NCBI GenBank assembly: GCA_000004985.1
Contig: GG738848.1
Strand: one strand, 5' to 3'
DNA length: 64,000 bases
From: Naegleria gruberi
Lineage: Eukaryota
Part shown: piece after piece, positions 4,601 through 60,256 of the stretch
Layout of the letters: the number at the start of each line of letters is the position of its first letter
How positions within the stretch are numbered: the stretch's first letter is position 1
Notes under the pieces: generated by a model
Told to the model about the DNA's origin: nothing
The model's database searches: none
What the model saw: only the letters and a program-made list of their open reading frames with translations
Program-made: the position numbers and the translations under genes

Positions 4601-7600
4601 AGCATTAATTGTAAAGCAAATGTTCAAGATATTAATAGACAAACACAAGGAACATCTAGTGAGGTTATTCTCCACTCTTGTAAATACTATGTTGGTATTC
4701 GCTGTACAAAGAGAGTTGTTATGAAATCTGATGAAAATATTGACTGCTTTTTCATTGTTACAGATATTAGAGGTAAAATTGTAAAGGATATTCCAATATC
4801 TGTAAAATTGGTCAAGTTTGGTTATGATTCTAGGGGTTATGAAAGATGGGAAACCACTAAACCAATCAAGGAAATTAATCTAACCTCTCAAAGTCAACCA
4901 CTTCTTCATACATTTACCCTCAATGAAAACACAAATGATACTGCCTATGGAGAGTATGCAATTTTGTGTGAGGTAAAAGAGAGTGAAAGACCAAAATTTA
5001 GATCAGGCATTAACAGATGTAGTATTCCAATTCGTAAATTTGGATTTAAAGAACACTTGACATCAAAGGGATACACTTCACTCAGCACCAATTCACTTGA
5101 GTTAATTTCTAATAAGTTTGAAACTGATGAATACGAGCCAGGTGAAGAAGCCAAAGTTTATATTGTCTCTCCATTCAATGGTGAGTGCTCTGGATTTGCC
5201 TGGGTTTTATGCAATGGATTAATCAAAGAGGAGAGATTTGACATTACTAACGGTATCCATGAATTGACCATTCCAATCAAGAAGGAATACAGACCTAATA
5301 TCCAAGTAAGAGTTCAATTATTTGGTACTGAAAATTATATTGATGTTGATGACAAGCCAAGAGTTAATCCAGCTCATGCTACTGGATCTCTAACCCTCAA
5401 TATTTCCAAAACCGAGCATGAACTCACTGTAACTGTCACTCCAAAGGACCCAATCTTGAGTCCAGGAAAAGAAACTGATGTCAGCATTCTCGTAAAAGAT
5501 AAGCAAGGAAACAATGTACCAAATTGTGAGGTTTGTTTAATTGTTGCTGATCAAGCTGTTTTAGATATGGCCAATTATTCAGTTACCAATCCAATGTTTA
5601 CCTTTGTTTCTAACAATTCATGCTCTGTTGATTTCTCTTCGATAAGAGATCGAGTAAGATATTGGTTATATCCAAGAAAAAATCAAAGAGATGAAGAAAT
5701 CTTAGCAATAAGACAACAGGCACTCCCTTCTTCAAATTTGTGTGCATGTGATTTAGCTGGTTGCAGTGGAGGCCGTTCGCGTAAATGCTGTGAACAATGT
5801 GGCGAATGTGACGATATGGCTCAAAAGGAATGCAAACGTGAAAAGTGTTGCAAGAAGTCATGTGGCCTTGCATGTTTTTCTAGAAGGTGTTGTAAAAATA
5901 GTAAGGATTCATATGATGGCTCACGATCCCAGATGCCATCTATGGATGATAGAAATGGTGTATTTGAAATTCGTTCCAACTTTAAACCAGATGCTGCTTT
6001 TATTGGATTTGCTCAAACTGATGAAAATGGATTTGCAAAGCTTGATTTCAAATTGACTGACGCTCTCACAAAATTCAAAGTTACAGCTGTTGTAAATGCT
6101 AAACAAGACATGTTTGGTATTGGTAATTCTGCAATTACTACCAATTTACCTATTGCAGTTAGACCATCACTTCCAAGATTTTTGAATTATGGAGATTTAT
6201 GTGATTTGACCTATGTTTTACAAAATCAAACAGATTCTGATTTGACTCTTTCTCTAGTATGTAATGTATCAAATCTCAGAATATTCAATGGAAAGGATAA
6301 AAATCAACGTAAGAAGGGATATACTGTTGTGATACCAGCAATGGGAAGAAAAGAAATTAGAATTCCTGTTCAAGTACTCAAATGTGGTAAGGCTCTTATC
6401 AATCTTGGAGTTAGAGTGGTTAGAGCCATAGCCAAGAATCCTGAAAAGCAAGAACTTGCCGATGGAATGGTTGGATGGTCAGATGCTGTCAAGAATGATT
6501 TCAAAGTTTTTACTCCAGTAACCAATGAAGCTTTTGCAACGTATGGAGATGTTAGTGCAGAAAGTGAAACTATTGTACAACCAATTTCACTTCCATCCAA
6601 GAATCTATTGGCACACTTTGGTGAATTCACTGTTAGTACTTCAACAACAGCTCTATCTACATTGACTGATTCTCTCATTTATCTCTATTCTTATCCATAT
6701 GAGTGTAATGAGCAAATTGCATCAAAGATTTTAGGTATAGTTTGTATGAAGGAAATGATCTTACAATTCTACACACCTGAAGAGCTTCAAAGATTGATGG
6801 AAATTTCTGGAGAGGAAGAAGTTAACACATTCATTAATTCCAACCTTGCTAGATTATTTGATCGTCAAAGATATGACGGAGCATTCTCATATTGGGATAG
6901 CAAGTTAATTGGAGACCCATTCTTAACATGTCATGTAGCTCTCTGTTTTGCAAAATGTAAATCTGAAGGTTACAAAATCCCAGATCAAATATTATCAAGA
7001 ACCAAATCCATTTTGAAGAATATTTCAAGTTTATTCTTCTTTGGATTCCTTTGGCCAAGATGTATTAAGGATACAATCAAATCATATGCCTATTATATTT
7101 TATCATTGTTAGCTGAAAGTGAATCTGATAAGGGACAGGTAATTTCTCTGTGTGAAGGAATTCTTGATCATTATAATAGCATTACTGAATTGACACAAGA
7201 ATTATCCCCAGAGACTGCTGCCTACCTTGCTATGGCCATTCATAAATGTAAGAAGGAACCAGTAACAGAAGAAAAGAAGGGCTTCTTTGCTAAATTTACT
7301 AAAGAAAAGATAACTATTCATCAATGGTTGGATGCTATCAAATCATACTTTAAGGAAAATGTAACAATTGACTCTGGAATTTATGCTCACTTTATTACTC
7401 GTTATGAAGATAATGAACTCGCTCAAATGGTTATGTTGCATTCAAATACCAGAACTGATGCTGTTGTTTTGGGTTGTTTGATGGAAATTGATAGAGAAGA
7501 CAGTAGTGATATTATTCAAAAATTGGTGAGAAGTTTGTTGGCTGCCAGAAATGCAAACAGATATGGTCGTTGGTATAATACTCAAGAAAATTCCATCTGT

Positions 7601-8404
7601 CTCATGTCACTCACTGATTATTTCAAGATATTTGAGAAGGAAATTCCAGATATGAATGTCAATACTTGGCTAGTAGATAGTACTAGACCAGAGGAAACTG
7701 TATTCATGGGTAATCAATCTTGGAAGGGAAGAAGTAGAGAAAAGAAAACTACATCATTACCACTTGTTGCCTTTGTTCCACGAAGTGATATTGAAAAGGA
7801 AGTTGTTAATCCAAATGAAAGTGATTCCAAAAAGTCATTCTTGTTGACAAAGAATGGAGCTGGAAGGCTTTACTATAGAATTGCTCTTTCATACACTCCT
7901 GAAGAATTGGTTCTCAAAGCTCTTGATAAAGGATTTTCAGTTTCCAGAGTTTACGAAGCAATTACCAACCCAGATGATGTCAAGTTTGACAAGTCAACAA
8001 AAACATGGAAGGTAAAATCAGGAGAATTAGTCAGAGTAACAGTTACGATTTGCAATCCAACCAGAAGATACAATGTAGCCATGGTTGACAAGATGCCAGC
8101 AGGTTTCGAAGCTGTCAATCCAGAACTCGATACACAATTTACTGATTTTGGAAATAGTGGCAATGAAGAAGATTTAGCAAACAAATACTATTACAAATGG
8201 TTCGAAAATCAAAACATTAGAGATGAAAGAGTTGAAGCATTCAGCAGAATCTTATATGAAGGCTCCCACGTTTACAGTTATATATGCAGAGCTACTACGA
8301 TTGGATCATTTGTTTCTCCTCCAGCTTATATCGAAGAAATGTACTCTCCTGAATGCTTTGGAAGAAGTAAGACTGAGTTTGTGCAAGTTTATGATAAAAA
8401 ATAA
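1604..8404 (+). CDS. Alpha-2-macroglobulin / thioester-containing protein (TEP/CD109-like) family, 2266 aa, single exon.
   Basis: Uninterrupted ORF with a real ATG (MSQQQQQQQEEE). A2M N-terminal-type segment (...CEVCLIVADQAVLDMANYSV...). Thioester-like motif YPYECNEQ, compared with canonical GCGEQ. Cys/Lys-rich insert at the bait-region position (LCACDLAGCSGGRSRKCCEQCGECDD...KCCKKSCGLACFSRRCCKNS). No N-terminal signal peptide is visible. Confidence 0.6.
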   Translation: MSQQQQQQQEEEIDPTLLNYRNLTLYVKKGESKDVVSALIRENESSSQSSSSEDIQNNVEEAFSKTVDESTFRIEELDEESLEKLLAELLKDQDDQEVSIQQNYLMREQSLKPPEPGTVEIKQQVEFPPKLDQLETAINSVGNYLAEKATENKKQETNFKIIRSVPTGKQNSEISSVPFISITFSHDMIEEFDGEPKSFEEIDFVEISPVTENVKEGKWKWIGTKSLVFQPRFRFDRSNEFTYKILKEKTKSVFGNTIEEDLVVTFKTPTSRTLSVIPSSTSFPISELPFIFLQFDQDMDKQSVLAHLSITVSSKSIGVEVLEETSIISKMLEDLDYAKKFPYVFGSYNRCLQGTYDPKRCMWLKLHIANETLHAGKDYPKIGLGEYLSILLKKGYKSLEGPIPSAHEYSTGIYGYSKMAVNYHYPKKHLFYNDIYPGCSFTFSFNNPIDLDKIESIETFVQVEPAIKNYKVTCNGNSIVISGDTLAREKYRVKILKGVPDIYNQSLENEYEATFEVSGEDREFNMTLSNSTIMPPCLFDSQDPFLYFDSVNIQETHVIINQVDPVEMYKESSFPKLAAKTVFNSYDNYDYFDWYPRKPHKIGKEVFDQKVKPDNFVKDRTVSTKIMLSQYLQNGKTGSLLVHIKPKRSILYNLFNGYETKWIQVSNLCADIISITGEKAAVFVTDFSTGKPVPNATVTLSYSTNNTPTKDEDLNIISTSETTNENGMAFFSYSRNYHTVLIISKDQDQVVYTNPTIYSHSIRTDTISAHIFNDRGLYKPNENVHIKGFLRDIKYNYEKGSENYGTYSIREPSTETKATYEVQDSRGVKYLDGKIELSPSGSFVLDLTVPDNANLGSHSLTICYGSRKFNHTFNVQEFRTKEYTVSSSIIPSSDKVDLFIGDKLVNKVSAKYYSGGGLSNSQVNYQFNTEPATFNPEGWSNYVFQDTDLRNNYKLNTLIENMKSKYQVYQSFNSATDPSGDDHAFMQLWDPEKIVTGPISINCKANVQDINRQTQGTSSEVILHSCKYYVGIRCTKRVVMKSDENIDCFFIVTDIRGKIVKDIPISVKLVKFGYDSRGYERWETTKPIKEINLTSQSQPLLHTFTLNENTNDTAYGEYAILCEVKESERPKFRSGINRCSIPIRKFGFKEHLTSKGYTSLSTNSLELISNKFETDEYEPGEEAKVYIVSPFNGECSGFAWVLCNGLIKEERFDITNGIHELTIPIKKEYRPNIQVRVQLFGTENYIDVDDKPRVNPAHATGSLTLNISKTEHELTVTVTPKDPILSPGKETDVSILVKDKQGNNVPNCEVCLIVADQAVLDMANYSVTNPMFTFVSNNSCSVDFSSIRDRVRYWLYPRKNQRDEEILAIRQQALPSSNLCACDLAGCSGGRSRKCCEQCGECDDMAQKECKREKCCKKSCGLACFSRRCCKNSKDSYDGSRSQMPSMDDRNGVFEIRSNFKPDAAFIGFAQTDENGFAKLDFKLTDALTKFKVTAVVNAKQDMFGIGNSAITTNLPIAVRPSLPRFLNYGDLCDLTYVLQNQTDSDLTLSLVCNVSNLRIFNGKDKNQRKKGYTVVIPAMGRKEIRIPVQVLKCGKALINLGVRVVRAIAKNPEKQELADGMVGWSDAVKNDFKVFTPVTNEAFATYGDVSAESETIVQPISLPSKNLLAHFGEFTVSTSTTALSTLTDSLIYLYSYPYECNEQIASKILGIVCMKEMILQFYTPEELQRLMEISGEEEVNTFINSNLARLFDRQRYDGAFSYWDSKLIGDPFLTCHVALCFAKCKSEGYKIPDQILSRTKSILKNISSLFFFGFLWPRCIKDTIKSYAYYILSLLAESESDKGQVISLCEGILDHYNSITELTQELSPETAAYLAMAIHKCKKEPVTEEKKGFFAKFTKEKITIHQWLDAIKSYFKENVTIDSGIYAHFITRYEDNELAQMVMLHSNTRTDAVVLGCLMEIDREDSSDIIQKLVRSLLAARNANRYGRWYNTQENSICLMSLTDYFKIFEKEIPDMNVNTWLVDSTRPEETVFMGNQSWKGRSREKKTTSLPLVAFVPRSDIEKEVVNPNESDSKKSFLLTKNGAGRLYYRIALSYTPEELVLKALDKGFSVSRVYEAITNPDDVKFDKSTKTWKVKSGELVRVTVTICNPTRRYNVAMVDKMPAGFEAVNPELDTQFTDFGNSGNEEDLANKYYYKWFENQNIRDERVEAFSRILYEGSHVYSYICRATTIGSFVSPPAYIEEMYSPECFGRSKTEFVQVYDKK

Positions 8405-16432: not shown

Positions 16433-18514
16433 TTATTTTCTATTTGATAGGATTTTCTTTACAGTTTTGTTATCTGAACTCAAAACGAGATCAGGAGCAA
16501 TGTTCAGAACAATATCACCAGTAATTCCTTGTTTTACAATATAATTCTCTTGCGCTAATTTTTCAGTACTATCTGCAATTTCAGTAAAGTTACTTCTGAA
16601 ATCGTCATCAAGTATCTCTTCATATTTTCTTCTAAATTCCTCAGAGGTTATTTCTCCATTAAACTTTTCCTTCTCAGATGCAACACAGCAAAGTATGACA
16701 AGTACTTCAATTGTTGTCTGACCTAATCCTTTTAGTATATCCAATTTTCTGCTAAATTGTGTATTTACAAGTTTTATCAGCTTACTTGTATCCAAGGTAT
16801 GAGCAATTGGAATCAAGTGAGTTTCCACAAATGATTTAATTTGTCTCATATCATGTTTGTTCTTTAAGAGACCCATCATTTTCTGAATCATATCTGCTGA
16901 AATCTTGTGCTTGTATTCATGAACAAGGATTGAGGTAATATCATCCTGTTCATACTGATTAAATGCCAAAAAGTTAATACCTGGATTCTTTGGTGGATCG
17001 TTGGTGATGGCCAATATTATTACTTTAGCCACTCGAATTTGTTCCAGATATTTGTTATGCTTGCTATATGAAAATTCATCAAGTAAGATGAGTGCTGGTG
17101 TGTGCTTCTTATTGAAATACTCCAATAACTTGGTGATTCTCTCTTGCTTCTTTGTTGAATCTGTTGATCGAGTGTAAACTTTTTCATAGAGCCTATATAT
17201 CAAATCAGATGCTTTTTCTGAACCAGCTAAATTCAATTGATACTTTTCCAAACAAGATGCATCAAATACTGAAGTTGTTACCATTGTTTTTCCTTGACCA
17301 TTAGTTCCGTAAATAAAAAGCACATTCTTTTGGGGATTAAAATCTTCATAACAGTTTTGGATAAAGTTAATTATTGTATCACATTCCTGCTTTCTTGAGA
17401 ATACTTCAACGTTTTGATTAAAGATTTTTGGTGATGATTTTTGTTTCTTTAGAGAAGATTCAAAAGGATGTTTCTCTTGTTCTTCTTCTCTTTCTGTGAC
17501 TGGAAGCTTAGCAATTGTCTTTCTTCTTGCTTGTCTTTGTTTTTTTGGAACTATTTCAATCTCGTCTTCAGATAGTAATGGTTCTTCAGTTTTCACAACC
17601 AAATCTTGTGAATCCTCAACTGGTTCAATTTTGACTTTTTGTCTGCGTCCTTGCCTAGATTTAACAGGAACAGGTTCTAATACTTCTTCTTGTGGTTGTT
17701 GCTGTATCTCATTAACAATAGGCACACTAGTTGAGGGTGAAACAATTTCTTGTGAATCTTCGGCTACTGTTGGAGGTACTGTTTCGTCTTTCGTTTCTGG
17801 AGTGATGCTAATAGTAGGTCGGGCTTGCCTCTTCTTTGTTCTAGTTTTAACAGATGCATGAATTACAGGGGATTGAATGTTGTTGGTAGTAGTATTCGAA
17901 TTGGATTGTTGTGATGAACTAGTTTCTTGAATTGGAGATTGTCTAACTAGATGAGTTTGAGGAGGGGAAAGAGGTGAAATTGATGGAGGCATCATTGGAA
18001 TTGAATGTTGACTATTGCTGTATGGACTTTGTGATAATGAGCTTTCGACTGGCATATTTCTCATTGGTGTTGAAAAGCTTCTAGAGGTTGTTGGACTGAA
18101 AAAGTATTCTCTTGTTTGATTAACAGATGTAATATATTGATCTCGATCCATAAGATCGATTTCTCTTTGTTCTGGTGGTAGTAATAAGAGTTTCTTCCAC
18201 AGCAGTCTATATTGAGTATTAGAGGTAATTTTAATGTCCTTGTTTGTTTTAATATCGTGAAAAACAATCACAAATTTACTCCTATCAACATTAGGATCAT
18301 CTATCACTTCCGACATTAAAAATTGTCTTGTTGATTCAATATCGGAATTTTCTTGTAATAGAGTTGTAGTTACACCATAATTTAAACACGATAGAGTGAC
18401 TTCCATTTCATCGGTAACACTATCATCAATCATGGAATGATCGGACAGAAGTGATGAGGAGAAAGAAGAGGTTTGTCTCCTTGTTGATGTATCTGTGATG
18501 TGTTGTTGACTCAT
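16433..18514 (-). CDS. Cdc6/Cdc18-like AAA+ ATPase (ORC1/Cdc6 family), 693 aa, single exon.
   Basis: Real ATG at 18512-18514 (MSQQHITDTSTRRQ). N-terminal region rich in S/T-P sites (SPYSNSQHSIPMMPPSISPLSPPQTHLVRQSPIQ, TPMR, SPST), like the Cdc6 CDK-phosphorylated N-terminus. Walker A FIYGTNGQGKTMV. Walker B LILLDEFSY. Sensor-1-like VIILAITNDPPKNPG (compare Cdc6/ORC1 LIGIANTMDLPER). The family assignment is inferred from motifs only. Confidence 0.45.
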   Translation of the reverse strand: MSQQHITDTSTRRQTSSFSSSLLSDHSMIDDSVTDEMEVTLSCLNYGVTTTLLQENSDIESTRQFLMSEVIDDPNVDRSKFVIVFHDIKTNKDIKITSNTQYRLLWKKLLLLPPEQREIDLMDRDQYITSVNQTREYFFSPTTSRSFSTPMRNMPVESSLSQSPYSNSQHSIPMMPPSISPLSPPQTHLVRQSPIQETSSSQQSNSNTTTNNIQSPVIHASVKTRTKKRQARPTISITPETKDETVPPTVAEDSQEIVSPSTSVPIVNEIQQQPQEEVLEPVPVKSRQGRRQKVKIEPVEDSQDLVVKTEEPLLSEDEIEIVPKKQRQARRKTIAKLPVTEREEEQEKHPFESSLKKQKSSPKIFNQNVEVFSRKQECDTIINFIQNCYEDFNPQKNVLFIYGTNGQGKTMVTTSVFDASCLEKYQLNLAGSEKASDLIYRLYEKVYTRSTDSTKKQERITKLLEYFNKKHTPALILLDEFSYSKHNKYLEQIRVAKVIILAITNDPPKNPGINFLAFNQYEQDDITSILVHEYKHKISADMIQKMMGLLKNKHDMRQIKSFVETHLIPIAHTLDTSKLIKLVNTQFSRKLDILKGLGQTTIEVLVILCCVASEKEKFNGEITSEEFRRKYEEILDDDFRSNFTEIADSTEKLAQENYIVKQGITGDIVLNIAPDLVLSSDNKTVKKILSNRK

Positions 18515-18553
18515 TTTTTTGATTGTTTAAAAATTTAACGGACTCGAGAAAGA

Positions 18554-18570
18554 AAAAGGCGCCAAAAAAC
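18554..18570. promoter_or_regulatory. E2F-like element AAAAAGGCGCCAAAAAA (TTTTTTGGCGCC on the minus strand) in the divergent promoter between the Cdc6-like gene and the PH gene.
   Basis: GGCGCC core at 18558-18563 flanked by A/T runs, 45 bp upstream of the Cdc6-like ATG. It matches the E2F consensus TTTSSCGC. Confidence 0.35.
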
Positions 18571-18780
18571 AGTTTGATTTTATTGGCAATGATAACAATA
18601 TTAATATTTCAACTAAGAATCAATATTACTATTGAACAACAGTATTGTACTTGCGAGAGTTGATGAAGGTTCCTTACAATTCATTTTTTATTAAAACAAT
18701 ATAAACGGAAAGAAGGCTGTAACAAGGGCGCTAACAAAGGTCGCTTCATCTTAAAAAAACGCACACTTTCATTCACCAAC

Positions 18781-21700
18781 ATGTCTTCTGAGGGATCATC
18801 ACTACTTGAAGGCTATTTCCACAAACAAGGACAAGGTGCTACCGGAGCCTCATATAAAAGAAGATGGTTTAAAGTGTATTCTGATCGGATAGAATACATG
18901 GTTGGTCCTAAAGATAAAAAGATTAAGGGTGATGTAAAAACATTAGATATGATTAGACTTGAAGATGGTTTTCATGGTCCAAATCAATTTAAAAATTATG
19001 GATTATCTCTTGTTACTGAAAGTAGAACATATAAAATTTGTTTTGAGGATGTTGTTACTAGACAAAGGTTTAAGGAAGTTGTTACAAAATTAATTCCTTC
19101 TACCGTCATACATCATGAAGAAAAACAAGATGACGATATTGATGATGATGAAGATATGCCTACTTTTGATGATAGTTCGGAAGAAGGTTTTGATGATTTG
19201 GAAATAGATAATTTTGATAAGGATAATGAAGAACACGAAGGTAAAGAAGATGAAGGATTAATGGACGATGGTGATGAAGAATTGGAAGTTAAATCCCATA
19301 TAGATATAAAAACAGATGATAGCAGGATGATCAAAAACCCTCTAATTCCTGATTACTTGGTAAGAGAAACTCCTTTTGGGTCTGTAAATAGTGATGATAG
19401 CAATAATTTCTCGAGTGGTGATGAAAGTTTTATGCCATCTACAAAAGATGATAAGAAGCATCTCAACCAAACTCCTCCGTCACAAGAATTAAAAATTAAG
19501 GAAGATTGGAGCGATTATAGCGATTATAGTGATGATGAGACTCTTCAAACTTCAAGACAAGAAGAACCAACAAACTCTACTGAGGAGGAAGTAATTATTA
19601 GTTCCCAAATTGAAATCCAATCGAAACTTCTTTTCCCTGAAAAGGATGTTGACGAATTACTGGAAGACGAAGAAAAAACAAGAAGAGAAACAAAAAGTTC
19701 AGATCACAAACAGGTGTCCTTGTTAAGTGAAGATAATCTTAATATAGGATCTTACAAGCATTTCATTGAAAGAATGACAGAACATGGAGAATCTGAAATC
19801 TTATGGAGTGGTTCTGTAAGAAAGGTGGTAAGAGGAAAGGTAAACAAGTTTGACGAAAGAAGTTTGGTTGTCACGAAATCAGCACTTTATCTTTTAACTG
19901 CAAAATCAAAAGGACTTGAATTCAAAGCCCGAGTTACATTCAGGGATATTTCTTCTCTTCTTATTAATGCATACGAAACAGAAGAGAAAGACTTCTTATC
20001 AATTTTGATCACAAACCCTGCAATCAACAATGGACATGATATGTTACTTGCATTCAACGATAATAGAGAAAAGTTTCTTGCTCATATCAAGAATGCGTTT
20101 GAGCAAAAAATGCTTAAGGAATTAATTGTCCATCTTGTTGATGACGTGACATTATATACAAGAACAAATAGAGCTGAGAGAAAGCCAATACCTCAACCTA
20201 TTTCCAAGGAAGATATCGTAACTTCAACAGATCACGATTATGCAAACTTTATTGTATCAGCAGATTGGAGATATCTTCTCAAACAATACGGAGACAGACA
20301 TATCTATTTTAGCGAGGAAATGTTAGTTAATAACACAAAACATGCTATTTTGATAACAAACTTGGCATTAATCAAAACAACAGACGCTAAAGTAAAAAGA
20401 AGAATAGAACTTGTTGATATATCAGAGATTTGGATTGACAATGCTGCCAAAGAAAACCTTCTAATCAAAGTACCTTCGGAGTATGACATATTTATTTCAA
20501 CAGCAAAGAGAAATGAAGCTGTTTCATCTTTACAAGAAGCTTTGGAAAAGTTAAAGGTAGACTTTAAACTTATTCAATCAGTAAACATTAAGGAAAAAGG
20601 TCAATTAAAGAAAACTGGAGATTACAGACAAAAAATGAAAAAGATGAAGGATCCAAAGAGAATTAAAGATCTAATGACACACGCAATTAAATCAAAGGAT
20701 GTTAGTGAGCTTGAAAAAGCAATTTGTAGCGCAAGAATATATGGATTAACAAACGATAAGCTGTATATCTTGTGCCTTCAACAAATACAAAAGATCAAGA
20801 CATCATCGATGGTACAAGAGGAGATGGAAGATGCCTATAAAAATTGTCATCTTAAGAAAATGAGAGAGCTTTTAAAGAAGGCTGAATCATTACGTCCACA
20901 TCTCACCCAATTGATTCATGTGATGACTCCTAAGTATACTGAACTTGTTAACACTAGGTTATTCAAAAAGAAAATGGAAGAAGCTATCAGTAAGAAGGAC
21001 TTTAGAATGATGAAGGATATATTTTCCAAAGCTCTTAGAGCTGGCTTGGCAGGTGATGTTGAAAAATACAAGCGAGATTATGATGCAGATGTACAAAAGG
21101 AATATTTGAGAGATCTGGTTTCTCAACATTTAGCTAATAGGGATGGAGACGCTCTTCGTCTTATTCTTATTGATGCTAAAAGTCTAGGCGTGGAAAATGA
21201 GAAAATTTTCCAAGAAGCTAAAAATTCAGTTTTGTTATTCAAAGAAGAAACTAAAATCAAAAGAAGATTAAATAAGGGTGTTGACGACGCTAACGACATA
21301 GGGAATATTGAAAAGTTGAGGGAATTGATTAAGGATGCAAAGGCCTTTGTTTCTACCAATCCTTCTATTTCACTCTCGAATACTATTGATTTTTGTAATA
21401 AGGAATGTGATAGAATCCAACAACGATTTTCTATTATTGAAAAGATAGATGAAGCCATCATGAAAAGAGACAAATCAGCAATTGATGAAATTATTGAGAG
21501 CAACAAACTTGATGATAGGTTGGATTTAACAAAAGCATATGAATGTCTAGATCACATCAATACTGATAGAGAACAAGAACAATTGGCAGCTATTTACAAG
21601 CTGGAAGAAACTCTTGATTCTCTGATTGTACTATATGACCATGAAACAACACCTGATAATGAAATCAAGTTGATGCAAATTATTGTTGAAGCAGAAATGT

Positions 21701-23540
21701 TTGTTGAATTGGGAGACTTGGTAGATTCTGCTAAAAATCTCATTCAAAAGAAGAGAATGGAAGCAAAGAGAAAGGAAAGAAAAATTCTCTCAATCAAATA
21801 TAGACTTGCTCAAGGTATTAAGGAAAGAGATATAGATGATCTTGAGACTGTTCTTGAAGAAGGACCATTTTATCCTGAATTGGCAACAGAGGTTCAAATT
21901 GCTAAAGAAATGTTAAGTGAATTATATCTTCATACACACGTTAAGGAAAATATCGTGGTGGTACCAGCTTTAACAGAAAAGGTTGAAAAGAAGGAAAATA
22001 CCTCAACTGGAAAATTCGAAGCCTTCCTAAAGAGTGCTCATATGTCCTTAGGAAGTGTTGAAAAGAGTGTTGAAGTCAAATTAGATTTTGAAGAATTGTT
22101 AGAAAAGAAGGATATTGTTGCTCTGGCTAAATTTATCAATAAGAATAAGCAGTTACTTACAAAAGAAGAAGCACAAAGAGCAACAGAAGTTATGGAAGAG
22201 TTATCATTGCCAAGTGCAACACCTGCAACTGCCACTGAATCATCAAAAGAGGAACTTCAAAAGAAGACAAAACCATTTTCATTCAACACAATGGTTTCAT
22301 CTCTCCATAGTAATATTATGAACTTGCTTAGTACTTGTGATGCAGACTCTATTGATCCAACATCAGGAAGATATGTTGTTCACTTATTCCCTCTTGGTGA
22401 TATCATTGTTAAGAATATTACATCAATTTTATATAATGGAACAAGAGTAAGTAGAAAATTTACTAACTTTGAAATCTTATCATTCATTAGAAAATTTATT
22501 GGATTAAAGAAAGAACACCATATGACATTTTTAAAAATCTTCAGGTTAGTGCTGTACAAGATGTAATTAGAGAATTTGAAGCCTTGGATCAAGTTCAACA
22601 TTTACCAAGTGATAACTTTGGAAAGACTGCTTCTCTTCTTCTGGTTCAATATTTACTTGATTGTGACTTCTTTGTTTATGCAATCAATCAATTGGCAATT
22701 GATGAAATGTACTTGCAAGAATGTTACGATAAGACTGCTATTTTATTTAACAAACAACTCAAAGATGAAATTTTGGGTGTATTCTCATTGCTCAATCAAT
22801 TTGATTTCCGTTTTGGATTTACCAAGGAAGTTGACGCAAAGGATGTTGCTTCTGCTAATATAGATCCACTTGCATCAACACAATCTGGCGTATCAATCAC
22901 GCAAACAGCTCAACCAAGTTTAAGTTTACAATTAACTTCAAGTACTTTGGACATGATTTCACTTTCACCTTTACTTCAATTGAAACAGTCAATCAAATCA
23001 ATTGTTCAGTTCTTCTATATGAAGAAGAATGATGAAAAGATGGATTTATATGATATTGGTGATGATTCAAAGAGTAGAGAAATTGATGTTCTTATAAGAA
23101 AGAAGCTTTGTTATTCATTGATGGATATTTTCTTGAAAGGATTTAAGAGTTTCTCAATATTCAAGACCTACCATGTTTGGAATGTGATTGAAGAAGCTGC
23201 AAGACTGAAAAAGTCATCTGCTGTTGATATTGGTGGTATTGGTATTCCATCGGCTGTTGAAACTGTTAACAAGATTGTTGAAGAGAGATTATCTTTAAAC
23301 ACCAAACAATTATCAAACATTGAAGATCTCAAGTTTAGAATCTTTGTTTGTTACTCATTGAATGATAATCAATTATCATACTTTATTCAATCTATTTTGA
23401 GAGAAAGTGATTTAATTAATAATTATTATGAAGCTGATTCATTGATAAGAAATTCCAACATTAGAGAAAAGGTGATTGGTTTCTTATCCAAGTTGGACAG
23501 ACTTCCATTTAACCTTTCTTTAACATCTGAATTGTTGTAA
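18781..23540 (+). CDS. PH-domain protein with an acidic region, a long coiled coil and a C-terminal globular region. 2 exons (18781-22446 and 22491-23540). About 1570 aa.
   Basis: Real ATG at 18781. N-terminal PH-like domain (GYFHKQGQGATGASYKRRWFKVYSDRIEYMVGPKDKKIKGDV...YKICFEDVVTRQRFKEVV). Acidic stretch DDDIDDDEDMPTFDDSSEEGFDD. Extended heptad-like K/E-rich sequence. GTAAGTAG donor at 22447 and CATTAG acceptor ending at 22490 (44-nt phase-0 intron), joining ...LYNGTR|KNYWIKERTPYDIFKNLQVSAVQDVIREFEALDQVQHLP. The track split this into ORFs 18781-22566 and 22584-23540. Confidence 0.5.
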
Positions 23541-23558: not shown

Positions 23559-26500
23559 TTAAATGTGATACAATTCGTGAATCATGAAAAAGTATTCAAT
23601 TGGACAATATAATTTGAGTTTTCGTACCATCTCTTCATCTAATTTGATCGTTATCAATAAATCTCTACATTGATTGATAATTTCAAATAATTGTTCAATA
23701 ATGAAAGGTTTTAAATGTTCATGTTCCATCAAATCAATAAAAATTCTCATTCCTTTCAAAATTTCATCAGAGGCAACAGAATTTAAACTCAACGAGCTTA
23801 TAGTTCCATTACTATTGTTATTGGAATTTTGAATCAGAGAAGTTTCATAATTATAAGAATGATTAATGGATTCATTCTTCAATGCAGTAATATCATTTAG
23901 AACATTAAATCTACTTGTTATTGTTTCTAATCCTAAACGAACAATTTGATGTTCCATACATGGTTGTATTAAACCTTTCAATACTTGATTAGGAAAATAT
24001 GAAATATGAGTTGTAACATTAGAATATCCAAAATTTAAAGAATCAACAATTAATGAAGATGCAGCACTAATATTTCCAAATAAACTTGTTAAGGTTGATT
24101 TACGTCTATTGTTAGATTGTCCAGATGATCCAATAGTATTATAATTACCAGCATTGCCACTATTATTTGTCTGTTGTTGAGAATCTTGAGAATTAATATT
24201 ATTATAAATTGAATAATTTGGAAACATGGCACTTGTTGGTGAATTCATTCCTCCTCCAACTCCACCACCCATAAATGTACCACTATTATTATTGCTATTG
24301 CTTGTAGTATTAGAAGTAGGAGGATATAACAAGTGAGAAAGTTGAACTGTCCACTCACTAATATTCACACCACTATTATTCATTCCACCAACACTACTAA
24401 CATTACCAAAACTTCCACCTATACCACCTATATTATTATTACTTGAATTATTATTACTACCACCACCTATATTACCAATATTATTATTATTACCAGTATT
24501 AATATTATTATTACCAGTATTATTAATATTATTATTATTATTACTTGAACCACCATTAAAAGATTGTGAAGTTGTTGCAATTAATCTTTTTAAAATTGTT
24601 TGTTCAAATTCTTCTTTTTGTTGTTGATTAGTTCCAAATTTAATGAAATGAAAAATGTGATTTAATAATTTTTGAGTATTTGAATTTAAAATAAAAGAAG
24701 AAATTCCATCAATTAATTGTCTTTCAATAATAGTATTACTAAATAAAGATAAAGTATTAACATTTGATAAATTTTGATCTTTTCTAAAAATTTCATTTAA
24801 ATAAAAACAAGCATAAAATCTAATTATAAAAGGTTGATTTCCATTTTGAATTAAATCCATAAATCTTTTTATAACTCTTTCAGATGAAATTGGTAAAATT
24901 GATAAAACTTTAAAAGTTTTAATAATTAATTCATTATTAATTTCATAATTATTTCTATTATCATCATGAATAAATAATAATAATAACATTGATAAATTAT
25001 TTAATAATTGTTCATGTAAATTATTTTTAATATTTCCATTTTTAGTAGTAATATTACTATTTATAGTATTATCATTATATTTATAGTAATTAATTAAATA
25101 TTCTTTCATAATTTTTAAATAATGTTTATAAACAAGTAAAAGTAAAATTGTTTGTTTAAATTCAGATAAAGGTTGTTGTGAAATTCTAATTAAAGATTTA
25201 AATAAAATTGATAATAAATCACAAAATATTCTTTCTATAATAATTGGAACTCCTTTACATGTAATTGTATAATTTCCATATATAGGTAGTAATTTAGTTA
25301 CTATATATAGACATGATAAATGTTGTTCTAAATTAAAATTTTGATCAAAATAATATAATTCTATATTTGTAGGTATTGAAGCAATTCCTTTTTGTTCATT
25401 ATTATCTAATAAATTTGGTAATAAATATGAAATACATAATTTTAAAATATGTGAAATTTTACCATTTGAATTTAATTCTAAAAATTCAAATTGATTTAAT
25501 AAATTTTTATGTGAAATTTCCATTTCTGTATTATTATTACCATTTTTATCAGAATGAGAAGAAGAACAAGATGATGATGATGAATCTGAAATATCATCTG
25601 AAATATCATCTTCATCTTCTGAATTTACTATATTTGTTAATAAAATTGTAATTGATTTTGCTAAATTTAAAAATCTTGGAATTAAATAATTTTTTTTAAT
25701 TAAAATATATTCCCTTTTTAAATATTGATCATTTTCAATTTGTAAAATATATTGATTATTATTAATATTATTAAATAAATTATTTTGATTATTTAAAATT
25801 CTTTCCATAATTATTAATAAATGAATTTCCTTATTAGTAGAAATAGTTTCAATTAATTTTACAAAATTTAAATCTAAAGAATTTAAAATACAATTATCAA
25901 TAATTGATAAAATACTTGTTTTAGAATTACTATTTATAGTAAAATTAAAAGGTACATAAATGGAAATTAATTTACTCATGTAAGATTCATCTTGTTCAAA
26001 AATATCAATAAATTTAATTAAATGATCATAAAATAATTTGTTAAATTCAATTGAATTATTATAAATTTTACCTAAAAAATTAAAATTAATTAATTTTTTA
26101 AAATCATCCATAATTTTATCTAAAATTAAATTATCAATAATTAAATTTAAATTTAATAATTGTAATAAAAAATTAGAACAATTAATTTTTTCATTATTTT
26201 TATAATTTTTAAATAAAAAATTATATAATTGATAAACAATTTTATAACTATCATAACTTGTTTTAGATTCCAAATTTGGAGAAATAAATTCATCTGGATT
26301 TATATTTTGAATTATATTAATTAAAGTTAAAATTAAATTAAATAAAATTATAATTCCTTCATCATTTTTATAATTATTAATTAAAATTAATAAATCATTA
26401 ATTGACTTTTTTAGTAATTTCATATAAACATTTAAAATTTGTCTATTTTGTATAATTTCTATATTTGAATTTAAAATAATTAATAATAAAAATGGTGTTG

Positions 26501-29500
26501 TATTATAAATATTTAATAATAAATTACTCATTTGTTCAAATAAATAATTTAATTGGCAATGTTCAATTAATTTAGTAATTCCAAAACAAGTATGTACATA
26601 ATTAGAAATATTAAAATTTGTAATATTAAAAAAATCAGAATCATTAAATTCACTTAAATTAATTGGTTGTGATAATTTTAAAGAAGGTGTAATTGACCTT
26701 CTAAAAATAGATTTTGTTTTCTTTTTTTCTAAATTTATAATTAAATCTTCAGAAATTTTCTTATTTTTTAAAAAATCACTTAAAATTTCTATAAATGTAT
26801 TTGAATTTAAATCATTATTATTAAAATAACTTGTTTCATTTTTAATTAAAATTCTTAAAGCAATTTGTTGAATACTTGTATATTTAGAAGTAACTGCCCT
26901 TTTTAGATATTCTCTATATATAGTTTCAATTTCTTGTATATCTTTTAATTCTCCATTTATATTATTAAGAACATTACTTCCATTTATATTATTATTATTA
27001 TTATTATTAGTAGTATTATTAGTAGTAGTGGATGATGATGATGGTGATGAATTATTCCATAAATTACCACTATTAGATTTATTAGATGATAATCCATTTA
27101 AAATACTACTTGTATGATTATTCATACTATTATATTGTCTTGAATGTTGTTGTTGTTGTTCTTTCTTATTTCTTATATTCATTATATTCATTATACTATT
27201 ATTACTATTATTATTATTATTAGATCTACTACTATTATTTTTAAAAGAATTAGAAGTAGATGATAAATTATCAACACTATTTGAATAATTTGTTGTTGAT
27301 GATGAAATTTGTCTAAAAGAAGATAATTCATTCTTTCTTCTAATTTGATTTGTAAATTGTTCAAGTTTATCCAATGATAAATTTCTAATTAAAATTCTTT
27401 CAATAATTAATTCTTCAGNNNNNNNNNNNNNNNNNNNNNNNNNNNNNNNNNNNNNNNNNNNNNNNNNNAAATTGTGGTAAATATCCTAATAATGGAAATT
27501 GTTGTGATGCAATTTGATGATCATCTTCATAATATTGTTGATAAATAAAAACTAATTGTCTCCAAATTAGGCGATACAATTGTGGTCTTTCAGAAAAGAA
27601 ATCATCGGGTAATTTTCTAAACTTTTCAATTTTGGAAACTGATAAATATTCTGCTAAATCTAACATGAATTCCATAAATTCATTAGATGTTAATATTTTT
27701 TCCTTTTTTGTAAATTGTTCAATATTATTAAAGGAAATTCTCTTTCTTTCATCACTTTCTTTTAATGAAAGTCTATTTCCACTACTATTATTATTATTAT
27801 TAGTAGTAGTAGTATTAGTAGTAGCACTACCTCCTCCACTATTACTATATATACTTGAATTTGAGATAACACCACCACTTGAAGAATTTGTTTGATTGTT
27901 AAATAAATTCAAATTCTTTGAATCTCTTTTACCCATTGAAAATCTTAAACTTCTACTTCTGACACGTCCACCACCAGCACCAACACCACCACTAGATGTT
28001 GGTGTTCCACTACCACCTACATAATTAGAAGTAAAAACACCAGTACCAGCACCACCACTATTAGTATTAGTATTATTTGGACTAATACTGAGTGAATGAG
28101 CCATAGCAGTATTGGAATCAGATGAATTTGGTATTAAAGTGGATGGAGTATTAGATGCTGAATTAAATACATCACTATATTGTTGTTCAATATTAGCAAA
28201 TAAAGAAGGTGTTACAACAACAACAAGTGAATCAGTTGATGAATCATAATCCATATGAGTTGATTGTTGTTGCTGCTGTTGTTGTTCAGATCCTCTTCTA
28301 AAGAATGATTGTGAATGATGATGTGATGATTGATTCATTCCAATACTATTATTACTATTAACATTTCCAAATAAATAATTATTAGATGCCAAATTACTTG
28401 GTAATAAATTCAAATCAGATGAAATGTAAAATTTGTTTAAAAATTGTTCTAACATCATTCTAATTGGTATTTCATTCATTTCAATTAAACTATTACTAGT
28501 ATTAGTATTACTATTAGTAGTATTAGTATTATTACTAGTATTATTAGTAGTAGATTCAATATTTTCCTGTTGTTTGAGTGCAAAATAATGAGCAAATGAT
28601 GGAATTCTAGCAATTTCCAAATATCTAAAATCATATTCATTCAATTCATTAAATAAAGTATTATATAAATTTAATGATCCACTATAATTCTTTTTATCCT
28701 TATTCTTTTTAACATTTGAATTGGCATTAATTGAAGAAGAAGAAGTGGATGATGAAGAATTTGATTGTCCTGAAACAATATTTCCTAAAATATTTGATAA
28801 ATTAGTAGAAATGAATAAATTAGGAGGAGGTGGAGCACAATTTTGTAAAAGAGATGAAATATTATTAATACCCATTGATTGAATATCAATAGTTTTTAAA
28901 ATATAATTATAATGTTGTGATTGATTAAAATTTGGATCTAATGGATGTTGTTGTTGTTGCTGAGTAAAATTTTGATTTTCAATAATATAAATGGTATTAT
29001 TTGTTAAATTTGATAATTGTGACATGATATTAAAATATTCTTGACCTTTAAAATGTTGAAAATGATCAAAAATTAAAATACATTTACCATTTAAAATTAA
29101 TTGTTTTAAATATTGTTGAATTTCCTTATTAAATTGTAAATGTTGTTTTTGTAAATTGTTTGCAGTTGATGAATTATTTCTAGAATTAAATCTTGGACTT
29201 TGTGTAAAACTACCAAAATTAGAATTTGAATTTTCATTAAATAAAATATCATTTGCTAATTTTATAACATTTCCAAAATAATATTCAAAACATCCTTGAA
29301 TTATTTTATCTATAAAATCATTTATATTTGGCATATTTAATATATTTCTTAAAGATACCATAATTGGTATTTTAAATAAACTATTAGAATGATTTGATAA
29401 TAATTGATTTAATAAATTATTATTACTTGCCATATTAGAAGAATTACTAGTATTTAAAGTATAAATATGTTCCATATAATATCTATGTATAGATGAAATA

Positions 29501-32500
29501 AAAAATGATAAATCTGAATCTGTAAAATTACAATTTCTACAATTTAAAACATAACATATACAAAGTGATGAATATTTGTTATATTGAAAATTATCATTTC
29601 CACCTCCTCCATTACCATTTCCACTATTATTACTTCCAATACTACTATATCCACTACTACTATTTACACTATTAATACTATTATATCTATTATTAGAAGA
29701 TTGTGTACTAAATCTATTATTATTATTATTATTATTATTATTACTGATATTATTACCGATATTATTGATATTATTATTGTTAATACTATTTCTATAATCG
29801 AATGAATTTGAATTATTTGAATCAATTAAATGACTTGATTGAAATAAAAGATCAAAATTTGTATTTCTAACACCAATAACAGCACCTCTCTTTCTTGTTT
29901 TAAAATTATCACCATCATTAATATCCATTGAAAATACATTCATTGACATTCTATTAGATGCTATATTAGAATAGCATGATAATCCAATTGTAGAAGAAGA
30001 AGAGGATGATGATATTATTGAATTAGATTGATTATTCATATTAATATTATTGGATTGATTCATATTAGTATTATTAATATTGGATTGATTGATAGATGTT
30101 GAAATGGTATTATTTAAAAATGGTGAATTAAATAGTGGTGAATTATTATTAGCAACACCTGAAGAAGAATTAAATGAAGAATTTCTTGATATTGAAATTG
30201 GTAATGAAGATGCAATATTTGATACATTAATATTACTTATATTTGTTGTTGTTATTGAAGTGGTAGTGGTGGTATTATTATTATGAATATTATTATTATT
30301 AATATTATTAATATTACTATTTATAGTAGTATTATTATTATTATTATTATTTAATAAATTATTTAAACTTGATGAATGTGAAAGTTTTCTTGAAGAAGAA
30401 AATTGATTTGATGATAAATAATTATTTTGAGGTGTAATATAAGAAGTAATTTCCAATTTTACTTCTTTTAAAAATCGAATATAATCAAATTTTCCTTTTA
30501 TAGAAAATATTAAATTATCTTCATCTTGAATTCTTTTAAATAAATCATATAACATTACATTCATATTATTTTCATTAAATGTTTCAGATTTATCTTCTTC
30601 CTCGTTTTCATTAAAAATATTACTATATATATATAAATTACTAAAATATTCATCCTTAAATGGAAAGTTTTTACAATTTTGTACACATTTTACAAAAGTA
30701 TAAATGGAAACATTATTTTCACTATCACTTGATAATAAAGTTTTTAAAACTTTTTCAGATTTTGAATGAAAAGCAGATTTTGTAAAAAAATAATAACAAT
30801 CTTTAAATTCATTCCAAGAAACTTTGTAATTTTGAGTTCCAAACATTTGATCCCAAAAATGTCTTGCTAATCTATAAATAATATAATAGGTAGATGTAAA
30901 TTTATGTATAAATGATAATGAATTTCCTAAATTAGTATTTCCTAAATTGGATGATTGATTATTCATTAAAATATTACTTAAATTAGAAGACATGGGTGAT
31001 GATGAAATCATTTGAATATTTCTAGGTGAAAAATCTAATCCATTATTATTATTATTATTATTATTTATATTTATATTATTTATATTATTTATATTATTAT
31101 TTATATTATTATGATCTATTAAATTTAAATTATATGAAGAAATTGATTGTATTGAATCAATATCTTTTTGAATTGATTCTAATGCAGATAAAATATCTAC
31201 TTTTTCATCCATACTTGTATTTATATTTCCATTAATGGATGTATTATTACCATTAATAGAATGATGATTGTGATGATTATTATTAATATTATTATTAAAA
31301 TTTGATTCTTTTCTTTCTTTTAATAAAAAATTTAAACATTCAGTTGCATTTAATCTTTCACTTGAATCTAATCTTAAACATTTATATACCAATTTTAGTA
31401 ATATTGAATGTCCTTTATCAAGTAATAAAGTTAATAAATTAAAAGATTGATTCTTATCAATACATTCACTTATAAAATTATCAATTACTAATTTAGTTTC
31501 ATAATTATTTGAACAATTAAATAATAAATCTCTTAATGAATCAAATCGACTTCTCCTTTTTTGTACAAGTAATTGTAATGCTACTATTCCTAATGCCCAC
31601 ATATCAACTGATTCATTATAATATTTACCATCAAATATTTCAGGTGCCATATAATTTTTAGATCCTTTTTTTAAAATTATTAAAATATTAAAATATTATT
31701 TATGGAAATTATTTAATATATATGGAAATTAATATATAAAATTAATATGAATAAATGAATATGAATGAATAAAACTTACCTGTTATACTCATAAGAGGTG
31801 AATCACCAACTTTAAATTCACGTGTTAATCCAAAATCAGATAAATAAATTTGAGCATTTTCAATAATTTCCTTATATGATAAATTTGTATCATTTGTTTT
31901 TTTAGATTGTAATAAAATATTATCAGGTTTCTAAATTATTTAAATATATTTATAAATATTAATAAATATTAATAAATTAAAAATATTAAAAATATAAAAA
32001 AACATACAATATCCAAATGTACTAATTTCCTTTTATGAAAAAATACCAAACTTCTAGTTATATCAATCATCCAATTTAATTTTAATTCACCACTAATAAA
32101 TTCATTTCCATAACTATTTGAAAAATTTAAAATAACATCTTCTAAACTTCCCAAATCACAACATGCCATTACAATAGATAATGCATATTCAATTTCACCT
32201 TTTAAATTATTTTTATATTCCTTATAGAATATATCATAGTGTGGTACTATACGAACTACTACTTGTTTATTGGAAGATGATGAAGATGATGAAGCATATG
32301 AAGATGAGGATGATGAAGCATATGATGCATATGATGAATTAAATTGATGATTAAATGTTGATTCAACATTACAAACTTGTAATATTAATTTAATTTGTTG
32401 TTCCAAATCACTTAAATTACTAATAGTTATACGTTTAATTGCTAAATTTATATTATTATTTTCATCCGTGGATCCATCATTATGTTGTTGTTGTTCTTGT

Positions 32501-43407: not shown

Positions 43408-43575
43408 TCATTTTTTTTAGGCGGGAAATTCATCTCTCCCATTATTCTTTTTGATATCATCATAACAATAACTGATGATGATTCCGAGTAACGAATATTT
43501 ATTCATGTCCATCACACAAATATTTGTGAAGATGAAATAATAAAAATAAATGATGACATTTAAAAATCAAAAAAA

Positions 43576-44703: not shown

Positions 44704-45456
44704 TTATTCCTTCTTCTTTGCTTGAGAAGCGACACTATTAATCTTTTGTTGAATAGCTTCTTGATCACCCAAATAGTAATGTTTGATTGGTTTCAAATTT
44801 TCATCTAATTCATAAACCAAAGGAACACCAGTTGGAATATTCAATTCAACAATTTCTTCATTTGGAATGTTATCTAAATATTTAACCAAAGCACGAAGAG
44901 AATTACCATGAGCAGCAACGAGAACTTTCTTTCCTTCCTTAACAGATGGAGCAATAACATCATTCCAATATGGAATAACTCTATCAACAGTTAAAGCAAG
45001 TGATTCAGTCTTTGGTAATTCTTCTTCAGTCAATGATGAGTATTTTCTTTCATGTCCTGGATATCTTTCATCAGAAACTTCAAGTGCTGGTGGTGGAATA
45101 TCGTAGGATCTTCTCCAAACTTTAACTTGTTCTTCACCATGTTTTTCAGCTGTTTGAGCCTTGTTTAATCCTTGAAGAGCACCATAATGTCTTTCATTCA
45201 ATCTCCAACTCTTACTAACTGGTAAATACATCATATCCATAGTTTCCAATACAATCCACAATGTCTTGATGGCACGTTTTAATAAACTTGTATAACAAAC
45301 ATCAAATTGATAGCCTTCTTTGCTCAAAATTTGACCAGCTTCTACAGCTTCCTTCAATCCTGTTTCACTCAAACCACAATCATACCAACCAGTAAATCTA
45401 TTTTCCTTGTTCCATTCTGATTCACCGTGTCTAATTAATACAATTTTATAAACCAT
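44704..45456 (-). CDS. 2,3-bisphosphoglycerate-dependent phosphoglycerate mutase (dPGM).
   Basis: Real [29 protein letters not shown] (RHGE catalytic histidine motif), ...[22 protein letters not shown]..., single exon, 250 aa. Confidence 0.8.
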
Positions 45457-45895
45457 TTTATAATGTGTTGTTGTGGGTATATCTAGTTGTTGTCTTGTTT
45501 TTTTTAATTGTGTTTGATCGGAACCGAAAAAGGTACTGTGGATAGGCTTGATTATTTGTTATTAGATAAATTTCCTTAGGCTGGATGGTATAGACTTGAG
45601 AGTAAGCTAGATAATTAATGGATAACAAAGTTAATCAAGTTGAATAATCCATTTAAAGATTTCTTTACAAATCAATATAATTTCTCATTTTAATATAAAT
45701 TGAAATCTTTTCAATCATTTTAAGCTCCAAAGGATTTAATTATTATTCAATAAAAAACTTTTTCAGCTGATTCATTGAATATATGATCACCACCAATATG
45801 AATTAACAACACTATGAATTCTCTCTTCCCGCCAATGATATCCTACAATATTTTCATCACCAGTAATAAATTTTTATTATTCAGCCTTTAAAAAA

Positions 45896-48321: not shown

Positions 48322-48333
48322 TTTGGCGCCAAA
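48322..48333. promoter_or_regulatory. Perfect palindromic E2F-type site TTTGGCGCCAAA.
   Basis: Seen directly in the sequence, 64 bp upstream of the ATG of the ubiquitin-like gene, at the edge of a GC-normal non-coding island. Confidence 0.35.
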
Positions 48334-48743: not shown

Positions 48744-48754
48744 TTTGCGGGAAA
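48744..48754. promoter_or_regulatory. E2F-like motif (minus strand TTTCCCGCAAA).
   Basis: The plus strand reads TTTGCGGGAAA. Its reverse complement matches TTTSSCGC. Lies inside the 48300-49880 non-coding island. Confidence 0.2.
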
Positions 48755-60244: not shown

Positions 60245-60256
60245 TTTGGCGCCAAT
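60245..60256. promoter_or_regulatory. Near-palindromic E2F-type site TTTGGCGCCAAT.
   Basis: Seen directly, about 200 bp upstream of the acetyl-CoA synthetase ATG, inside a GC-normal non-coding island. Confidence 0.25.

Follow-up and report, generated by a model that had tools for sequence, protein, structure and literature searches.

In surveys of replication initiators, only one Orc1/Cdc6-type protein is reported for Naegleria and likewise for other excavates, and whether this reflects ancestral simplicity or divergence beyond recognition is a matter of debate (PMC3297607). For Naegleria gruberi, the replication proteins that have been recognized are one Orc1/Cdc6-type protein together with Orc2, Orc4 and Orc6, and a second Orc1/Cdc6 would escape detection only if strongly diverged (PMC3297607). 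Among other protists, metamonads and T. brucei (ORC1B) have Orc1/Cdc6-like proteins of which some lack the arginine (R) finger, and whose orthology is unassignable (bioRxiv 10.1101/2021.03.14.435266; PMC3297607). Here we analyze a gene for an AAA+ protein in a 64,000-nucleotide stretch of N. gruberi contig GG738848.1 (the whole stretch is referred to as the window). Judging from its sequence, the protein is a lineage-restricted and very divergent Orc1/Cdc6 paralogue, unannotated until now, and the promoter of its gene carries an E2F-type element conserved in four species. The features of the gene and of its predicted product are the following.

16433-18514, minus strand: coding sequence (CDS) of a 693-residue divergent Orc1/Cdc6-family AAA+ protein (open reading frame, database identity and family searches)
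18146-18403, minus strand: N-terminal folded domain, residues 38-123 (AlphaFold2 model, predicted local distance difference test [pLDDT] 70-87)
17429-18145, minus strand: low-complexity linker, residues 124-362 (S/T-P dipeptides, K/R clusters)
17285-17308, minus strand: Walker A GTNGQGKT, residues 403-410 (alignment)
17066-17092, minus strand: Walker B LILLDEFSY, residues 475-483, with D479 and E480 (alignment)
16991-17011, minus strand: sensor-1 strand AITNDPP, residues 502-508, with N505 (alignment)
16838-16855, minus strand: HDMRQI, candidate sensor-2 arginine in D555-x-R557 (resemblance to GDxR)
16436-16759, minus strand: C-terminal helix-helix-helix-hairpin, read as a winged-helix domain (model and Foldseek)

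The open reading frame (ORF) begins at the first ATG past an upstream stop, and its translation is identical to the N. gruberi protein XP_002682117 (EFC49373, NAEGRDRAFT_62705); therefore the gene is intronless. The database name of this protein is "predicted protein" only, and a literature search on the accession numbers of the gene returned no real mention of it. The three motifs named in a first-pass annotation of this DNA, GTNGQGKT, Walker B LLDEFSY (within LILLDEFSY) and AITNDPP, are all found in the 693-residue protein.

The assignment to the Orc1/Cdc6 family is carried by profile and structure comparisons. Pfam returns the generic AAA_22 alone, barely at its cut-off (27.1 against 27), and no match to Cdc6_C, while in NCBIfam the archaeal orc1/cdc6 family TIGR02928 is the top match for all three members of the family described below. 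A search of the PDB with a profile of the three C-terminal regions retrieved archaeal Cdc6/Orc1 (2qby_A) at 2.9e-4 and human ORC1 at 1.7e-3, in alignments covering Walker A, Walker B, sensor 1 and the F-x-x-Y motif; the other rows, Mfa1 and FtsE, are non-significant (E at least 0.03). The AlphaFold model of the C-terminal 331 residues has a mean pLDDT of 69, with values of 70-94 in the ATPase core, and when it is submitted to Foldseek the top 29 matches are all ORC/Cdc6 chains, Drosophila ORC1 first, with alignments to full ORC1/Cdc6 chains that extend over 363-380 columns. An identity as RFC or Rad17 can be discarded, as family and structure searches favor Orc1/Cdc6: the best homology is to TIGR02928 (best E = 4.3e-9), while the RFC large subunit matches one member only, at 2.2e-3. 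The first-pass annotation had called the gene Cdc6-like; TIGR02928 and the PDB profile uphold the Orc1/Cdc6 clade, but the label of Cdc6 specifically is not established, because the Arg-finger segment is absent and the scores are far below the curated cut-offs. Membership in the Orc1/Cdc6 family is a conclusion in which we have high confidence.

When the heterolobosean family is aligned with S. solfataricus Orc1-1 and human ORC1, the pattern G-x-x-G-x-G-K of Walker A and residues D479 and E480 of Walker B are invariant throughout; AITND of sensor 1 aligns with the archaeal GITND and the human AIANT, the asparagine being invariant, and F-x-x-Y (LAFNQY) is likewise invariant and aligns with FPPY and FQPY of the canonical proteins. 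Two deletions stand out in the heterolobosean proteins: about 10 residues are missing after Walker B, and the segment from sensor 1 to F-x-x-Y is 8-14 residues shorter than in the canonical proteins. The canonical counterpart of the latter segment contains the Arg finger (DPRVKS in archaea, NRVSSRLG in human), whereas no arginine is found between sensor 1 and F-x-x-Y in any of the four orthologues (N. gruberi, N. fowleri, N. lovaniensis and the metagenomic one). D555-x-R557 does not vary among the family members; its distance is as expected, and it sits in a lid with pLDDT of 40-60 that falls outside every sequence alignment; the C-terminus is modeled as three helices and a beta-hairpin at pLDDT 45-69. 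Taken at face value, the sequence points to an ATP site that is probably complete: Walker A, Walker B and sensor 1 are present, and the sensor-2 arginine is probable.

The N-terminal domain (86 residues) is modeled with the order beta-beta-alpha-beta-beta-alpha-beta, and Foldseek relates it best, though always weakly (E ~1e-2), to RA/RBD, FERM-F1 and UBL domains; the model thus describes a ubiquitin-like beta-grasp fold. A BAH domain at this position was considered and is ruled out by the beta-grasp model and the RA/FERM-F1/UBL matches. The linker, which aligns poorly among orthologues, contains the clusters KTRTKKRQARP, GRRQKVK and KKQRQARRK, and the description of the N-terminal region as rich in SP/TP proved accurate, with 10 S/T-P dipeptides in the 362 residues preceding the ATPase against 1 in the 331 residues after it.

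The known range of the family so far is, on sequence searches, Naegleria plus one related metagenomic organism. An exhaustive phmmer search with the C-terminal 347 residues against 1.84 billion representatives of 50% clusters matched only three proteins: the query, N. fowleri FDP41_009304 (49% identity) and one encoded on an ENA metagenome contig (39%). A word-indexed homologue search with the full protein gave only the self match, and with the C-terminal sequence or alignment it missed even that one; two metagenome scans for further relatives found none. The N. lovaniensis orthologue has 831 residues and is also intronless. The loci used for comparison are L001 and L004 for N. fowleri, L006 for N. 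lovaniensis and L002 for the metagenomic relative. The 772-residue N. fowleri gene model (L001 5001-7390) stops early (...RKNVAL) with respect to N. gruberi and N. lovaniensis. For the metagenome protein (L002 2409-2467) the true start is probably Met20 (ATG at 2467), which places the TTTCCCGC site of its promoter outside the CDS.

Set against the described systems, the protein shares only 12-16% identity with eukaryotic Cdc6 (human CDC6, yeast Cdc6, Drosophila Cdc6), with no similarity detectable from single sequences, and differs from it in having a folded ubiquitin-like N-terminal domain and in lacking both the Arg-finger segment and the ~10 residues after Walker B. Orc1 belongs to the same clade, human ORC1 being the best eukaryotic match to the profile (1.7e-3) and Drosophila ORC1 the top Foldseek match; relative to Orc1, the Naegleria protein has a beta-grasp domain in place of BAH and no Arg finger. 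Archaeal Orc1/Cdc6 (S. solfataricus Orc1-1, 2qby_A; P. aerophilum Cdc6, 1fnn) provides both the top curated family (TIGR02928) and the top PDB sequence match, and the sensor-1 string ITND is identical in S. solfataricus Orc1-1, but the Naegleria protein is without the DPR(V)KS segment and carries a 360-residue N-terminal extension of eukaryotic style. With the Orc1/Cdc6-like proteins of other protists (T. brucei ORC1B, metamonads) it has in common a high divergence, a lineage-restricted distribution and an atypical domain architecture; however, no sequence link to them was detected, the exhaustive search having returned three heterolobosean clusters only, and the Naegleria protein exceeds them in size, retains a winged-helix-like region at its C-terminus and includes a UBL-like domain.

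The position that such a protein might occupy can be considered in the light of the ORC-Cdc6 ring, in which the Arg finger of Cdc6 faces the non-catalytic Orc2, while the Arg finger of Orc1 is needed to activate the ATP site of Cdc6. By inference from these ring structures, the missing Arg finger favors the Cdc6 position. The lack of a BAH domain does not exclude Orc1, because ORC1 of Euglenozoa is also without BAH (PMC7052976 supplement). The gene is probably different from the Orc1/Cdc6 already recognized in N. gruberi, since it bears no curated name; no identifiers of N. gruberi ORC proteins are given in the supplements of PMC7052976.

A different possibility is that the protein derives from Orc1/Cdc6 but works outside licensing, either as a chromatin or silencing factor comparable to Sir3, which is derived from Orc1, or as a signaling NTPase that uses its ubiquitin/RA-like domain. 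The extreme divergence and narrow distribution of the family would fit such a role, as would the loss of the Arg-finger segment, the deletion of ~10 residues after Walker B, the likeness of the N-terminal domain to RA/RBD/FERM-F1 modules and some weak NB-ARC/STAND matches. However, Walker A, Walker B, sensor 1 and D-x-R are all invariant in the family, whereas Sir3 has lost nucleotide binding; the best matches are consistently Cdc6/ORC1; the promoter holds a conserved E2F-type site; and the single Orc1/Cdc6-type protein reported for N. gruberi leaves a vacant slot. On these grounds we consider a function outside licensing unlikely, and retain a Cdc6-like licensing role as the preferred reading.

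The second line of evidence comes from the promoter, for which the relevant features in N. gruberi are listed here.

18515-18780, no strand: intergenic region of 266 bp, common to the AAA+ gene and its divergent neighbor (sequence, ORFs)
18553-18569, minus strand: E2F-type element, TTTTTTGGCGCCTTTTT on the gene strand, with core GGCGCC at 18558-18563 (core in four orthologous promoters)
18537-18541, minus strand: CCGTT second block (AACGG on the plus strand), 16 nt downstream of the GGCGCC core (four-promoter comparison)
18781-23540, plus strand: divergent neighbor with PH, myosin-TH1 and RUN domains, in two ORFs (domain matches)

The region was correctly recognized as a bidirectional promoter, the 266 bp from 18515 to 18780 being shared with the divergent gene that starts at 18781 on the plus strand. 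The element that had been annotated in it, AAAAAGGCGCCAAAAAA, is present, but it occupies 18553-18569, one base below the position first assigned to it. The E2F octamer TTTGGCGC (gene strand) spans 18559-18566, its final base being 45 nt upstream of the initiator A. The CCGTT block is 23-27 nt from the ATG, within the stretch CCGTTAAATTTTTAAA (18526-18541, gene strand); in reverse complement it reads AACGG, which is similar to the Myb/MSA core. A weaker GC-rich block, GTTAGCGCCC, is present at 18726-18735 on the far side of the intergenic region, ~50 nt upstream of the ATG of the PH/TH1 gene.

The same two blocks are recognized in the orthologous promoters, shown here from the core to the second block on the gene strand.

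N. gruberi: TTTTTTGGCGCC-TTTTTCTTTCTCGAGT-CCGTTAAATTTTTAAA
N. fowleri (second block at L004 ~16501-16507): GAATTCCCGCC-AAAAAAAGTTCGACCAA-CCGTTAAC
N. lovaniensis (second block at L006 ~16444-16459): CCAACCCGCC-AAGAAAAGTTCGAGCAA-CCGTTAAATTTTTAAA
Metagenomic relative (second block at L002 ~2441-2445): GATTTCCCGCC-TATTTTACAAAA-CCGTTTCC

All four species have an SSCGCC core at 43-72 nt upstream of the ATG. The strict consensus TTTSSCGC is met in N. gruberi and in the metagenomic relative (exactly TTTCCCGC), the N. fowleri site (ATTCCCGC/TTTGGCGG) has one mismatch, and N. lovaniensis keeps only the core CCCGCC (GGCGGG). SSCGCC occurs 8 times in the 64-kb window, twice in 20.7 kb of N. fowleri, once in 20.7 kb of N. 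lovaniensis and once in the 6-kb metagenome contig; the sole occurrences in the latter two, and one of the two in N. fowleri, are those in the promoter of the AAA+ gene. CCGTT follows the core at a distance of 12-17 nt downstream in all four promoters, and is itself followed by AAATTTTTAAA in the three Naegleria species. By shuffling each intergenic region, the chance of the core is 0.004-0.025 per promoter and that of the two blocks together ~1e-4 per promoter, figures that somewhat overstate the significance, as the patterns were set once the sequences had been inspected and N. fowleri is closely related to N. lovaniensis. As MAFFT put the N. gruberi core out of place when aligning the four promoters, the blocks were aligned by eye and tested by shuffling; the intergenic sequence beyond them does not align among species. 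Both blocks have the same order and orientation relative to the AAA+ gene in all four species. The region has expanded to 266 bp in N. gruberi, and there the element is still 45 nt from the ATG of the AAA+ gene and ~215 nt from the neighbor.

The element is like the E2F/DP sites (TTTSSCGC) in the CDC6, ORC1 and MCM promoters of animals and plants in that N. gruberi and the metagenomic relative have the exact consensus, N. fowleri and N. lovaniensis have a GGCGGG-type core, and the site is close to the start codon; it departs from classical E2F sites in its pairing with a conserved CCGTT block, and in the occurrence of the motif at non-replication genes as well. Sequences of N. gruberi E2F, DP, DEL (E2F7/8-type) and RB are given in the supplement of Medina et al. 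2016 (PMC4862756). Their DNA-contact motifs, RRIYDITNVLEG (RRIYD) in NgruE2F and RRRVYDALNVL in NgruDP, are the unchanged motifs of the respective families, so that binding of E2F/DP to the promoter is plausible. The conserved E2F-type site thus suggests, at the level of sequence, the same cell-cycle wiring as in animals and plants; a literature search found no cell-cycle transcriptome of Naegleria. As to whether the gene depends on E2F, we regard the chances as even.

The specificity of the motif was evaluated over the entire window, in which TTTSSCGC occurs 6 times against 0.44 expected, a count not attained in any of 100 shuffles, and GGCGCC 3 times where 0.08 are expected. The other matches to TTTSSCGC all lie outside long ORFs; they are listed below together with one site that has a single mismatch.

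43421-43428: TTTCCCGCC, 14 nt upstream of the start codon of a family-X DNA polymerase (PolX)
45826-45835: one-mismatch site TTCCCGCCAA, 68 nt before ALG3
48322-48333: perfect palindrome TTTGGCGCCAAA, ~62 nt before a 270-residue protein with a C-terminal ubiquitin-like (UBL) domain
48747-48754: TTTSSCGC site inside a 1.6-kb stretch free of ORFs
60245-60253: TTTSSCGC site flanked by acetyl-CoA synthetase and a small ORF on the minus strand

The extended consensus of the window sites is TTTSSCGCC followed by an A/T run, as for E2F. From its distribution, the motif looks like a real promoter element of Naegleria, whose presence alone would say little on the function of the gene downstream. Consequently, the first-pass claim that the motif independently supports the functional call has little force, as PolX, the UBL protein and acetyl-CoA synthetase also have the motif upstream, and ALG3 has it with one mismatch. 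The informative part is, in our comparison of sequences, the conservation of the motif at the AAA+ gene: among the orthologous promoters compared, this is the only one in which the core is kept in all species. The remaining sites do not qualify as conserved E2F sites, since N. fowleri lacks those of PolX and ALG3, N. lovaniensis lacks that of ALG3 as well as that of the UBL gene, and the UBL-gene site of N. fowleri is degenerate.

These observations bear on the possibility that the GC-rich element is real and conserved but is not an E2F cell-cycle switch, being instead a general element, or the target of another factor, in the AT-rich promoters of Naegleria. The density of SSCGCC, which is ~15 times higher outside long ORFs (0.58 per kb) than inside them (0.04 per kb), and the sites upstream of PolX, the UBL protein, ALG3, acetyl-CoA synthetase and others, in about one fifth of the window promoters, are what one would expect of such an element. 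On the other hand, its consensus with the A/T run is that of E2F, the genome encodes E2F and DP with intact contact motifs, and only the promoter of the AAA+ gene retains the core across all the species compared. A general element of this kind appears to us improbable to about the same degree as a function of the protein outside licensing.

It might also be argued that the element serves the divergent PH/TH1/RUN gene rather than the AAA+ gene, given that the intergenic region is shared by both, and that the core of the three compact promoters (74-116 bp) lies 33-46 nt from the ATG of the neighbor, about as near as it is to that of the AAA+ gene. This is far less probable, because the expansion in N. 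gruberi left the core and CCGTT (at 45 and 23-27 nt) beside the ATG of the AAA+ gene and ~215 nt away from the neighbor, and the blocks keep one order and orientation with respect to the AAA+ gene in the four species. Least probable of all, and already very unlikely, is a functionless chance match: the motif is short, its versions in N. fowleri and N. lovaniensis are imperfect and the tested patterns were partly defined after seeing the data, but the excess of TTTSSCGC in the window was not reproduced by any shuffle, the core recurs in three independent lineages at the low per-promoter chances given above, and the remaining intergenic sequence cannot be aligned.

Our preferred reading, a Cdc6-like licensing initiator with a CDK-controlled linker and an E2F/DP-RB promoter, can be formulated as follows. 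The protein would bind ATP, join an ORC-type ring and load MCM from a Cdc6-like position, in which its own Arg finger would be dispensable. The linker, with its S/T-P dipeptides and K/R-rich clusters, may be the target of CDK and of nuclear-import control. The E2F/DP site (TTTGGCGCC) ~45 nt before the ATG would drive transcription from a compact promoter, RB would repress the gene outside G1/S, and the CCGTT block may bind a further factor. The licensing role, the position in the ring, the control by CDK, the binding of E2F and the periodic expression are the parts of this model that we infer. Several observations weigh against it. At the level of the protein, a single-sequence PDB search with the full protein gives no match at E up to 10, the TIGR02928 score is 27.4 bits against a curated cut-off of 181.3 and thus misses the family threshold, the structure models were built on an alignment of three sequences with lid and winged-helix regions of low confidence, the loss of the Arg finger and the two deletions in the ATPase core could mean an altered function, and only one of the S/T-P sites (TPMR149) matches the full CDK consensus. 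At the level of the promoter, the sites of N. fowleri and N. lovaniensis are 1-2 positions off the strict TTTSSCGC, and of the roughly one fifth of window promoters that carry such an element, most belong to genes without a link to S phase. When everything is considered, we judge the model as a whole slightly better than an even proposition.

With regard to the genomic context, the head-to-head arrangement of the AAA+ gene and the PH/TH1 gene is kept in all four species, and the pair with PH/TH1/RUN is the conserved unit of the locus. In N. gruberi the PH/TH1 ORF and the RUN ORF (22584-23540) are probably one gene, because all three domains occur together in the N. fowleri orthologue; the orthologues are single products of 1549 residues in N. 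fowleri (L004 11635-16432) and 1542 residues in N. lovaniensis (L006 11597-16381). In these two species UBL, ALG3, phosphoglycerate mutase (PGAM), Costars, PH/TH1/RUN, AAA+ and SNF2 genes follow one another within 12 kb. The order in N. gruberi differs, with PGAM 26 kb from the AAA+ gene and an M28 peptidase flanking the latter. Past 24 kb of the window the G+C content drops from ~33% to 18-25%, and two very long, extremely AT-rich ORFs are found at 23559-27374 (1271 residues) and 27415-31650 (1411 residues; partial kinase domain match only). A chimeric window, suspected from the drop in G+C, was rejected, as the 2266-residue ORF at 1604-8404 and the phosphoglycerate mutase at 44704-45456 map to the same 712,659-bp N. 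gruberi contig. The former ORF encodes an alpha-2-macroglobulin-like protein, in which MG2, bait-region, A2M and bacterial MG10 domains are arranged in a manner typical of bacteria.

These results can be read in the light of the two views on the excavate replication machinery. A conserved and unannotated gene of the Orc1/Cdc6 family in three Naegleria species favors the view of divergence over that of ancestral simplicity, and provides a concrete candidate. A bolder interpretation, which we offer tentatively and whose chances we rate below even, is that this protein represents the second Orc1/Cdc6 paralogue "missing" from Heterolobosea. It would then be a functional Cdc6, overlooked by annotation on account of its divergence past the reach of BLAST, its gain of a ubiquitin-like domain and the loss of its Arg finger, and the E2F/RB-licensing link would extend to Discoba. 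If this were true, Naegleria would have separate Orc1 and Cdc6 functions and not one bifunctional protein of the archaeal style, and the E2F/RB-licensing link, possibly with a Myb-type AACGG element, would be present in Discoba and therefore probably in the last common ancestor of eukaryotes. A lineage-specific licensing factor of unusual architecture may also be of practical interest, as Naegleria includes the pathogen N. fowleri. The conserved E2F-type site, for its part, offers a testable entry to the transcriptional control of the cell cycle in a lineage without known promoter logic.

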